From a virus (taxonomy: Duplodnaviria; Heunggongvirae; Uroviricota; Caudoviricetes), in IMG/VR virus record IMGVR_UViG_2671180921_000012: DNA of 64,000 bases; one strand, given 5' to 3'. Positions 16,887-19,412 of this stretch are shown here, one piece after another. A program made the translations under genes and the position numbers. The notes under the pieces were generated by a model, which was given only the letters and a program-made list of their open reading frames with translations, was not told where the DNA came from and did no database searches. Each line of letters begins with the position of its first letter. Positions within the stretch are counted from its first letter, which is position 1.

Positions 16887-17516
16887 ATGAACATACCACC
16901 CAGGGCGACTAGGACTGTTTTTTGTGTCGGTAGCGGTCCGTCACTCACTCGTGAGGACTGTGCTGCTATAGAAAAAACTGGCTGTTCAATCATCGCGGTT
17001 AACAATTCCTGGCAGATGTTCGATGACATTTATGCCTTATACGCCGGTGATTTGTCATGGTGGAAGCAATACGGATCCACCATACCGGGAGGGAGATTCC
17101 GCAAAGTGACAGCCAACCTGGCGGCGGCGAAATCATTTTCGTTGGAGTACAGGCGATATTGTGGACCGGCGGAAGGGGTAAATAGCGGCGCGCAGGCTAT
17201 CAGTCTGGCTGCTGAATCAGGGGCTGAAGTAGTGGTATTAGTCGGCTATGACTGTTCTCTGCAAAACGGCCTTCATTGGCATGGCGCGCACCCTCAAGCA
17301 CTACGGAATCCAACGCAGGTGTCTATTTCAAAATGGCAACAGCAGTTCCTGGATACCCGCAAAAAACACGCAGATTTACATATTTTGAATGCAAGTAGGA
17401 GCAGTGCAATTCAATGTTTCCCAAGAATAAATTTAGAGGCAGTGATCGCGTTATTATCGTCGGCAGTGGCCCAAGCGCCGCAAACTTTGTTGCGCCGCGC
17501 GGAGTGCCGATTATAG
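16887..17516 (+). CDS. Rossmann-like protein with GSGPS motif, DUF115/MptE-like (209 aa)
   Basis: ORF 16854..17516 trimmed to internal ATG; VFCVGSGPSL ... IIAVN ... VVVLVGYDCS; paralog of next gene. Confidence 0.4.
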   Translation: MNIPPRATRTVFCVGSGPSLTREDCAAIEKTGCSIIAVNNSWQMFDDIYALYAGDLSWWKQYGSTIPGGRFRKVTANLAAAKSFSLEYRRYCGPAEGVNSGAQAISLAAESGAEVVVLVGYDCSLQNGLHWHGAHPQALRNPTQVSISKWQQQFLDTRKKHADLHILNASRSSAIQCFPRINLEAVIALLSSAVAQAPQTLLRRAECRL

Positions 17517-18040
17517 CGGTCAATGGGGCCATCGACTGGCTTAACCGCGCTTCTTATTTTTTCACCCTTGATCCATCCCCAGACAATATGCGGCGCGTTG
17601 GTCGTGGCCGCCGTCGCCGTGGTGTTTGTTATTGCATGGCACTACCCGATGTTAAAGAACGTGAAGTCAGAGATGGCGTTCTGTGCTTCCGTCGTGTGGC
17701 TGAACGCGGCATGGAGCCAAAAAATACGAATTCTCCCGAGTGGTGGGCGTGGCGCTGGTCCGCACATTTCGGCCTTTGCGAAGATGAGAATGAAATTGCC
17801 AGCGGCAATAGTGCATATGGTGCTCTGAACCTGGCTTTCCATATCGGATTCAAACATGTAGCTCTGGTGGGCGTTGACGCTACGCAAGAACTACGCGTTC
17901 ACTCCGGCGGCACGCCAAAAAATCTAAGTCACCTGCCTTTGTTATTCCAGTCTGCGCGTGAACAGATTGACGTTGTTTCATGCGGGAAAATGGGAGGTAT
18001 TCCGCAGATGACTCTTAAAGAATGGCTGAAGAATACATGA
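17414..18040 (+). CDS. Rossmann-like protein with GSGPS motif, paralog (208 aa)
   Basis: [14 protein letters not shown] ... [10 protein letters not shown] ... VALVGVDAT; overlaps previous gene by about 100 nt in another frame. Confidence 0.4.
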
Positions 18041-18714
18041 TGGCACCCACAATTTATCACCGTATCGACGGTACCAAATACAGGAATGTCTGGGTTGTTG
18101 GTGATCTGCATGGTTGCTACACCAGACTGATGTCCGAACTCCATCGTGTGGATTTTGACCCGGCGCAGGATTTACTGATATCGGTCGGCGACCTTATCGA
18201 TCGCGGTACTGAAAATGTCGAATGTCTGGAACTATTGCAGATGCCCTGGTTCAGGGCAGTGATGGGGAACCATGAGCGGCTGATGATTGATGCGTTAAGT
18301 CCAGATGGCAACGTGAATAACTGGCTAATGAATGGCGGACAATGGTTCTTCATGCTGGACACTGATCAGGAAATATTAGCCTGGGCGCTGGTGGAGCTGG
18401 TAAAGCGTCTGCCCTATATCATTGAGTTGAACACCGGGCAAGAAACTATCGTTATAGCCCATGCCGACTATCCGGATAATGAATACCAATTCGGTAAGGA
18501 GGTGCCGCTTTTCAACGTTGTCTGGGCGCGCGAGCGTATCAGTGATTCGATGGATGATATTGGTGGCGAAATTTCGGGCGCAGATCGTTTTATCTTTGGT
18601 CACACTCCGGTGAAAAGCCCGAAGACATTCTGGAATCAGCAGTATATCGACACTGGTGCCGTATTTTGCGGAAACCTGACATTGATGAAAGTGAAAGGTG
18701 ATGGTGCAGCATGA
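18022..18714 (+). CDS. ppp: Ser/Thr protein phosphatase, lambda-PPase-like (230 aa)
   Basis: GDLHG, GDLIDRG and GNHE metallophosphatase motifs. Confidence 0.85.
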
Positions 18715-19412
18715 AGATTGCTTTAGTTTTTCGCTCTGGTGGTGACTATAACGCTTCCGATGTGCAGTGGCTGGTTAATCAACTGCCAAAAGGCTATGAA
18801 ATTATTTGCCTGACAGACCTGAAGCGTTTACATGTACCTGGCGTCAAAGTTGTCCCATTGATCAACCAGTGGCAAAAGTGCCGTGGCTGGTGGGCGAAAA
18901 TCGAGTTGTTCCGACCGGATATAACCGATGATCTGTTCTATCTGGATTTGGACACGGTTATTGCCGGTGATATACGCCCAATCCTAGAGCATCCACCAAC
19001 CAGCTTCACCATGCTTAGGGATTTTTACCATCCACAATATCGTGGCAGCGGTGCCCTGTGGATACCAAATAGTGTTAAAGCGCATATCTGGAGTGCATTC
19101 TGGCAAGATCCGGAAGGTTGGATTTCTCGTTGTGTCACTACTGAGTGTTGGGGTGACCAGGGGTTCTTACGAAAGGTTATGGGCGATGATACACCAGCAT
19201 TTCAGGATCTGTATCCAGGATGGTTTGTAAGTTACAAGGCCGATGTTGTGGAACCTGGTTCAAAATATGCGAGCGCGCGTTACTCCAGGGGGAATGGGGC
19301 ATTACCAAAAGACTGCCGAATAATCTTTTTCCACGGCAAACCGCGACCTCGCGAAGTGTCAGAGGATTGGCTTCCCCTTATCAGCTCATTTTTTGAGCGA
19401 GAATCAGAATAA
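18711..19412 (+). CDS. Glycosyltransferase-like protein with DxD motif (233 aa)
   Basis: FYLDLDTVI DxD-type motif; start overlaps ppp stop. Confidence 0.4.

Follow-up and report, generated by a model that had tools for sequence, protein, structure and literature searches.

We analysed a 64,000-nucleotide stretch of viral DNA (hereafter the window; IMG/VR record IMGVR_UViG_2671180921_000012) that derives from a P1-like phage-plasmid. The part considered here, positions 16500-19800, shares 99.3% identity with Escherichia phage P1 (NC_005856) and as much as 99.6% with other P1-like elements. The original prediction, made from sequence alone, had described in this region two overlapping paralogues, a phosphatase and a glycosyltransferase-like protein, and had suggested that they are P1 pmg genes of uncharacterised function. 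The open reading frames (ORFs) are present, the VGSGPS, IIAVN, LVGxD and DxD motifs can be read in their translations, and the match to the NC_005856 annotation, in which the four ORFs are pmgO, pmgP, ppp and pmgQ, bears out the suggestion (Table 1). PmgO and PmgP have exactly the protein sequences of their P1 counterparts (100% identity), whereas Ppp carries 3 substitutions and PmgQ 6. Downstream of the late promoter LPpmgL the gene order is pmgL-pmgM-pmgN-pmgO-pmgP-ppp-pmgQ, and the genes form a chain of overlaps (pmgN/pmgO; pmgO/pmgP, 103 nucleotides (nt); pmgP/ppp, 19 nt; ppp/pmgQ, 4 nt) with no convincing intrinsic terminator inside the operon. The annotation carried over from P1 also places the operon downstream of the C1-controlled region PpmgN/Oppp. 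Translation of pmgO from an internal ATG (16887..17516) gives a protein of 209 amino acids (aa) that matches the N-termini of its homologues.

P1 is heavily used in genetics, yet these 'putative morphogenetic' genes have been without a function since the genome was annotated, and we found no functional study of pmgO, pmgP or pmgQ in the literature. RefSeq and PHROG already label PmgO 'alpha-2,3-sialyltransferase' and PmgQ 'glycosyltransferase'; given these labels, the bare idea of glycosyl chemistry is not new. What we add is the definition of pmgO-pmgP-pmgQ as a conserved, mobile three-enzyme unit, which is very likely a glycosyltransferase cassette, together with its breadth, fusions, accessory genes and genomic positions, the exclusion of Ppp and Pap from it, and a concrete hypothesis for its donor and acceptor.

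PmgO and PmgP both contain VGSGPS and IIAVN, and the LVGxD motif reads VLVGYD in PmgO and ALVGVD in PmgP. Direct comparison of the two proteins by BLASTP is weak (E 0.003 over 36 residues, covering just the N-terminal GSGPS...IIAVN stretch). When the two families were compared with hhalign as alignments (28 relatives for PmgO, 40 for PmgP), they matched over 164 columns (probability 98.1%, E 7.3e-14), and MAFFT aligned them end to end, with GSGPS, AVN, a conserved Asp, WW, NS(G/A), GxD and a C-terminal helix in common. Because the family profiles match over this length and share these residues, we take the proposed paralogy to be real. Each family also has features of its own: PmgP-family invariants include P20, N37, D53, N132, S133, D155 and H173, and PmgO has its own invariant motif, HWHGxH. 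Neither translation contains a visible signal peptide or membrane segment.

The two paralogues had also been said to overlap by about 100 nt in different frames, which is correct (Table 1), and long overlaps of this type occur in many relatives. Within the P1 overlap, the pmgO frame has two heptamers that are formally -1 slippery, T_TTC_CCA at 17417 and A_AAT_TTA at 17429. A_AAT_TTA is unique to P1, and T_TTC_CCN is found in just 6 of ~20 overlapping relatives, where it is a consequence of conserved CFP/MFP residues. Since the slippery sites are not conserved, and since a separate AGGAG ribosome-binding site lies 12 nt upstream of pmgP, we judged a programmed frameshift producing a PmgO-PmgP fusion in P1 to be unlikely. 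Natural single-chain O-P fusions do exist (P0051, P0226, P0244 and P0300), and the P0051 gene is directly followed by a pmgQ homologue. Because the genes overlap in P1 and many relatives and are fused in other phages, PmgO and PmgP most likely act together as a pair.

The nucleotide-binding fold proposed for the paralogues, of the MptE-like (DUF115) type, held at the level of structure, where a Rossmann-like alpha/beta core is superposable on Maf and MptE structures; it did not hold at the level of the Pfam score, given below. In structure, PmgO is closest to a protein O-glycosyltransferase; the matches from a search of BFVD were all unannotated phage proteins with this fold. An 80-sequence PmgO profile matched the sialyltransferase Cst-II (E 6.4e-5), with profile positions 4-132 on Cst-II residues 2-170. 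In this register GSGPS falls on GNGPS, AVN on CN31, NSG on TSG131-133 and GYD on GID152-154. These are segments of Cst-II that we take, from its structure, to bind cytidine monophosphate (CMP)-N-acetylneuraminic acid. Homology to family GT42 (Cst-I/Cst-II) thus includes the conserved CMP-binding motifs; the alignment spans the N-terminal two-thirds and ends before the catalytic base His188. The nucleotide-sugar chemistry proposed earlier is the best reading. The residues essential in Maf enzymes are E324 and D415 in MmMaf and D272, S334 and D357 in the Clostridium botulinum enzyme (CbMaf). Invariant residues of the PmgO family include D55, S100 and D122, and those of the PmgP family D53, S133 and D155; the Ser-to-Asp spacing is 22, versus 23 in CbMaf, a comparison of motif spacing only. 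The PmgO family is large, with 505 clusters (50% identity) at E <1e-30 and 7,287 at E <1e-3.

PmgQ, the predicted DxD glycosyltransferase-like protein, proved to be GT8-like by both fold and family profile. Its structural model (predicted local distance difference test score 94.5) has a GT-A fold, and its top fold matches are exclusively GT8 enzymes (Skp1 alpha-galactosyltransferase, 16.9; GlyE, 16.7; glycogenin, 16.5; LgtC, 16.2; WbbM, 15.2). The PmgQ family profile retrieved 6mw5 (E 3.2e-6). Invariant positions in the family are D79-L80-D81 (the DxD motif of metal and UDP-sugar binding), G148-D149 (with Q150 at >=90%) and H208, and the DxD, GDQ and C-terminal His align to the corresponding GT8 segments of 6mw5 and 5gvv. 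Homology to GT8 is visible only by family profile or fold: no Pfam family, Glyco_transf_8 included, matched PmgQ at E up to 1. Compared with known GT8 enzymes (glycogenin, LgtC, GlyE, Skp1 Gat1, WaaO/WaaJ), PmgQ is shorter (233 aa) and forms a phage family of its own, phrog_1962.

Species-representative genomes, viral contigs and searches for the loci of single homologues together gave 42 diverse loci with a PmgP relative. A scan of viral contigs with a P1-led alignment gave P1 copies only (99-100% identity), and was redone with a distant lead sequence. A PmgQ relative accompanies PmgP in 41 of the 42 loci, the exception being a locus cut by the contig end, and a PmgO relative accompanies it in 35. 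The named hosts are Enterobacterales, Pseudomonas, Alloalcanivorax, Zhongshania, Methylophilaceae, Commensalibacter, Brevundimonas, Sinomicrobium (Bacteroidota) and a Longimicrobiales metagenome-assembled genome; all are diderms bearing lipopolysaccharide (LPS), from several phyla. By contrast with the proposal that all the genes listed in the original prediction form one module, only PmgO, PmgP and PmgQ co-occur, and Ppp and Pap are confined to P1-like loci. A ppp gene lies between pmgP and pmgQ solely in the window and in close relatives of P1 (L084-L086, L131). In distant P1-like elements the order is pmgM-O-P-Q-pmgR, with pmgQ directly after pmgP and no ppp, and ppp is absent from the cassette in all other lineages too. 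Because of this distribution, we regard Ppp as a lineage-specific insertion, a passenger apparently unrelated to the cassette.

Additional genes are found within the cassette in other phages: an FkbM-type methyltransferase between pmgP and pmgQ (14 loci), a Nucleotid_trans-like GT-A enzyme (6 loci), and GT2 and TOD1_MUCI70 genes. A fusion of PmgO to a TylF O-methyltransferase also exists. As far as gene content can tell, this is the make-up of a variable glycan-building locus. The glycosyltransferase genes lie within or beside virion structural genes, as in virion glycosylation cassettes of the mycobacteriophage type. In ~12 HK97-type prophages the order is TerL-portal-protease-major capsid protein-[cassette]-gp6 connector-head completion; in other phages the cassette lies between the connector and head-completion genes, after a head-completion gene, or just before the tail tube gene. 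Some loci have it directly after the holin-endolysin-spanin genes and before terminase. In P1 it lies downstream of LPpmgL and directly upstream of pmgR.

Homologues of all three genes are also found in chromosomal islands of Pseudescherichia, Serratia and a metagenomic contig (L103 1..20600, L003 1..20558 and L182 1..12261, respectively), where they are interleaved with genes for several Big_1/invasin-type immunoglobulin (Ig)-repeat proteins without signal peptides. The Pseudescherichia island and the metagenomic contig encode an inverse autotransporter (IAT_beta); the Serratia island and the contig encode a holin and a lysozyme, and Serratia also has lipase and lipoxygenase genes. The islands look like lysis-cassette-dependent secretion loci, whose cargo may be glycosylated. 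One protein, P0232, is a PmgO-like enzyme fused to Big_1/Big_13 domains. Two others, P0217 and P0325 (L183 703..2157), combine a PmgO-like domain with a ~290-aa C-terminal domain that has no Pfam match and that resembles a heptosyltransferase-type GT-B by eye only; the P0217 gene directly follows a phage head-completion gene.

With these observations in hand, we tentatively favour, at a little short of even odds, a reading in which the O-P-Q cassette is expressed late and glycosylates an acceptor, most likely protein, using host CMP-3-deoxy-D-manno-octulosonate (CMP-Kdo) and a uridine diphosphate (UDP)-hexose. PmgO and PmgP would be paired minimal enzymes of the sialyltransferase-like superfamily (Maf/GT42/MptE-like), each transferring a CMP-activated 2-keto-3-deoxy sugar acid. 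A CMP-sugar is probably the donor for both. None of the cassettes in the 42 loci contains a cytidylyltransferase or ulosonic-acid synthesis gene, and to our knowledge CMP-Kdo is the only such donor in E. coli K-12, so that Kdo is our best guess. We infer that PmgQ, as a retaining GT8-type enzyme, would then add an alpha-linked hexose from a UDP-sugar, and that in other phages the glycan would be elaborated by the extra glycosyltransferases and O-methyltransferases of the cassette. Transcribed with the late and morphogenetic genes, the cassette of phages would decorate a head or neck protein of the virion, and its chromosomal versions would decorate surface proteins with Big_1 Ig repeats; the product would be a non-essential glycan. 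A protein acceptor is the candidate we prefer, with somewhat less than even confidence, because the closest structure is a protein O-glycosyltransferase, because the cassette is sited in head/neck blocks, and because of the Big_1 adjacency and fusion. Such chemistry has a precedent in Maf enzymes expressed in E. coli BL21, which use CMP-Kdo to form Ser/Thr-O-Kdo (10.1101/2020.06.03.131540). In its most extended form, the proposal would be that P1 and hundreds of other phages of Gram-negative bacteria carry out a hitherto unrecognised protein O-glycosylation with a minimal two-subunit Maf-like transferase, which places Kdo drawn from the LPS precursors of the host on Ser/Thr of head/neck proteins, with GT8 enzymes (sometimes with methyltransferases) extending and capping the glycan, and that this system has been co-opted in enterobacterial chromosomes for Big_1 proteins. 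We consider the extended form rather unlikely as a whole. If true, native glycosylation of proteins with Kdo would be described for the first time, as would a system for virion glycosylation in phages of Gram-negative hosts.

The proposed system can be compared with known ones. The Maf flagellin O-glycosyltransferases (Magnetospirillum Maf, PDB 5mu5; Clostridium botulinum; Geobacillus) are multi-domain proteins of >600 aa, whereas PmgO and PmgP (209 and 208 aa) come as a paralogous pair or tandem fusion. Linkage to flagellin or nonulosonic-acid genes is a further property of Maf, and no flagellar or nonulosonic-acid biosynthesis genes cluster with pmgO/pmgP in the 42 loci. Cst-I and Cst-II (Campylobacter jejuni) act on lipooligosaccharide, and E. 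coli K-12, as far as we know, makes no CMP-sialic acid. Phage-encoded enzymes are known to glycosylate the capsids of mycobacteriophages (Freeman et al. 2023, as cited in PMC11256854). As described in PMC11256854, virion glycosylation in Che8 and relatives involves phage glycosyltransferases with methyltransferases nearby, and a non-essential capsid glycan. That system differs from the P1 cassette in its enzyme families and its host envelope; its glycan was shown by mass spectrometry, whereas that of the P1-type cassette is a proposed one.

Several points weigh against protein glycosylation by PmgO, PmgP and PmgQ. No P1 protein glycan has been reported, and a virion proteome paper (PMC9024508) and two cryo-electron microscopy studies do not mention glycosylation, although a glycan could easily escape standard proteomics, and flexible glycans could be hidden likewise. 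Plaquing is normal both after in-frame deletion (PMC9024508) and after CRISPR interference (CRISPRi) knock-down of pmgO, pmgP and pmgQ, and deletions and knock-downs of ppp, dbn and pap also plate normally. Across phage lineages there is no one candidate acceptor gene that accompanies the cassette, a pattern that a host-derived acceptor such as LPS fits equally, and in several loci the cassette is beside lysis genes rather than head genes. A phmmer search with eight island proteins against the six-frame ORFs of the window, the one part of P1 covered, found no Big_1-like acceptor. As for the enzymes, PmgO and PmgP score 23.4 and 20.9 bits against Pfam PF01973 (MptE-like; DUF115/Maf core), below the gathering threshold of 34.6, which is passed by some homologues and tandem fusions (P0005-P0010; P0226, 41.5 bits; P0244, 43.6 bits). 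Both proteins are without the large N- and C-terminal domains of Maf, and their catalytic residues were matched to those of Maf (E324, D415, Ser) by motif spacing, not superposition.

LPS is the main rival to a protein acceptor. PmgO and PmgP might be WaaZ-like enzymes that add extra Kdo to the Kdo2-lipid A inner core, with PmgQ adding a hexose in the manner of WaaO, WaaJ or LgtC; LPS altered or truncated late in infection might hide the receptor of P1 on debris, keep other phages out, or help lysis by weakening the outer membrane. We consider such envelope remodelling possible but unlikely. In its favour, the cassette occurs in structurally unrelated phages whose named hosts are all LPS-bearing diderms, as would fit a universal host acceptor, it often adjoins holin, endolysin and spanin genes, and P1 adsorbs to the LPS core. 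WaaZ, the E. coli K-12 LPS core Kdo III transferase (GT73), uses CMP-Kdo, the only CMP-sugar in the P1 host, and weak WaaZ-family signals are seen: a short motif alignment around NSAxGAL...GxD, a TIGR04437 match on PmgP (11.9 bits, E 0.1, versus a 200-bit cut-off), and a faint PF27901 (WaaZ_KDO_III) match on the O-P fusion P0051. By hhalign, however, E. coli WaaZ reaches 17% and 10% probability for the two families, and WaaO reaches 9% for PmgQ. With score and profile probability too low, we rejected membership of the WaaZ family (GT73; TIGR04437, PF27901), and WaaZ would be a fold-level relative of PmgO and PmgP at most. Further arguments against an LPS acceptor are that PmgO finds its closest structural counterpart in a protein glycosyltransferase, that a Big_1 fusion and Big_1 adjacency exist, and that the cassette lies in head/neck blocks; LPS-converting genes are typically integrase-proximal and expressed in the lysogen. 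The P1 operon is C1-repressed, and therefore lysogenic conversion is not possible.

It is quite improbable that pmgO, pmgP, ppp, pmgQ, dbn and pap form a single pathway in which the phosphatases process sugar-phosphate or phosphoprotein intermediates. The translational coupling of P1 ppp to pmgP and pmgQ through the 19-nt and 4-nt overlaps would fit such a pathway, as would the weak GT-B signal of Dbn and its co-occurrence with cassette genes in Serratia and Buttiauxella; against this, none of the 40 loci beyond the close P1 group has ppp in its cassette, the orthologue-level match of Ppp is with protein Ser/Thr phosphatases and not with sugar phosphatases, and Pap matches a polynucleotide kinase-phosphatase domain and does not co-occur beyond P1-like loci. 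We think it very improbable that PmgO and PmgP are pyrophosphokinases, like MptE or thiamine pyrophosphokinase, that activate a small molecule, with PmgQ acting on the product or independently. The shared fold would allow for MptE-like activity, but the sequence profile matches GT42 sialyltransferases rather than kinases, the CMP-binding motifs align, and the constant partners of the two proteins are glycosyltransferases and sugar-type O-methyltransferases. Phage glycosyltransferases classically modify DNA, as in T-even phages, and the cassette is expressed late, during DNA packaging; nevertheless, we give hardly any credence to an anti-restriction hypermodification in which phage DNA is glycosylated. 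The cassette has no companion gene for base hydroxymethylation or for another precursor modification, and we know of no sialyltransferase-like or GT8 enzyme that acts on DNA. Deletions left anti-restriction activity unchanged (PMC9024508), and none of the six proteins had a PADLOC match or other match pointing to a defence or anti-defence role.

The proposal of a glycosylation cassette turns an orphan annotation into a specific hypothesis about a mobile unit in the structural and lysis modules of many phages. The hypothesis is cheap to test, because each gene already has an in-frame deletion mutant (PMC9024508). If the acceptor is a virion protein, phage glycosylation would reach beyond actinobacteriophages, with a bearing on immune recognition of therapeutic phages and on P1-derived transduction vectors. 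If the acceptor is LPS, the cassette would have a new late-acting receptor- or envelope-remodelling function. With either acceptor, the minimal enzymes could be useful as glyco-engineering parts.

Table 1. Features of the pmgO-pmgP-pmgQ region and related genes, in coordinates of the window.
Feature	Position	Strand	Description
dbn	9920..10918	+	Possible GT-B (group 1) glycosyltransferase; candidate accessory enzyme
LPpmgL late promoter	15757..15775	+	Annotation transferred from P1; sequence identical in the window
PpmgN, predicted sigma-70 promoter	16658..16684		-10 hexamer TATGCT in P1, CATGCC in the window (degraded)
Oppp, C1 repressor operator	16697..16713	-	Annotation transferred from P1; adjoins predicted promoter PpmgN
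pmgO	16854..17516	+	220 aa as annotated in P1; minimal Maf/MptE-like, GT42-related glycosyltransferase-fold protein
pmgO/pmgP overlap	17414..17516	+	103 nt; pmgP in the -1 frame
pmgP	17414..18040	+	208 aa; pmgO paralogue, same fold family
ppp	18022..18714	+	230 aa; lambda-type Ser/Thr protein phosphatase
pmgQ	18711..19412	+	233 aa; GT8-like retaining GT-A glycosyltransferase, DxD
pmgR	19494..19712	+	Context for the cassette, not one of its enzymes
pap	21048..21554		Annotated 'acid phosphatase'; haloacid dehalogenase (HAD) phosphatase domain

Among the neighbouring genes, ppp had been predicted to encode a lambda-type phosphatase, and Ppp is a bona fide lambda-type metallophosphatase. It matches Pfam Metallophos (PF00149) with 59.3 bits (cut-off 21.5) and NCBIfam PRK11439 with E 3e-81 (272.5 bits, below the equivalog cut-off of 326), and the PPP-family motifs GDLHG, GDLIDRG and GNHE can be read in its translation. 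With lambda phosphatase (NinI) and E. coli PphA/PrpA it shares the metallophosphoesterase motifs GDxHG, GDxxDRG and GNHE, and according to the P1 annotation it is 64% identical to lambda phosphatase; it is only in the P1 lineage that this phosphatase sits within a glycosyltransferase cassette.

The GT-B-like gene reported at 9944..10918 is dbn, and both it and pap lie where they had been described. In the P1 annotation dbn encodes 332 aa from a start equivalent to 9920, so that 9944 is an internal ATG, and the product differs from that of P1 by 5 substitutions. Dbn scores 25.2 bits against Pfam Glycos_transf_1, just under the cut-off of 26.4, and has no informative PDB sequence match. We found no relation between Dbn and the extra C-terminal domain of P0217 and P0325. 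Outside P1, Dbn homologues lie near PmgP/PmgQ homologues in two loci only, in the Serratia (L003) and Buttiauxella (L097) chromosomes, which is only suggestive of membership in the cassette. Pap matches the HAD domain of polynucleotide kinase-phosphatase (PF25109, 44 bits; PHROG label 'polynucleotide kinase'), which suggests a role in nucleic-acid end repair rather than sugar chemistry, and we found it in P1-like loci only, never in non-P1 contexts. The O-P-Q-pmgR order is kept in distant P1-like elements; pmgR is needed for head-tail joining (PMC9024508).

Downstream of pmgR, pmgS is split in the window into ORFs at 19714..20457 and 20325..20975 by a 1-nt deletion near 20293, versus a single 420-aa gene in P1; it is either a pseudogene in the element represented by the window or the result of a sequencing error. 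Upstream, pmgN (16757..16912, 51 aa) overlaps the start of pmgO. It was essential in a CRISPRi screen and non-essential as an in-frame deletion (table in PMC10695390), a difference that points to polarity on the genes downstream or to a technical discrepancy. All C1 operators of the region, Oppp included, are unchanged in the window relative to P1.

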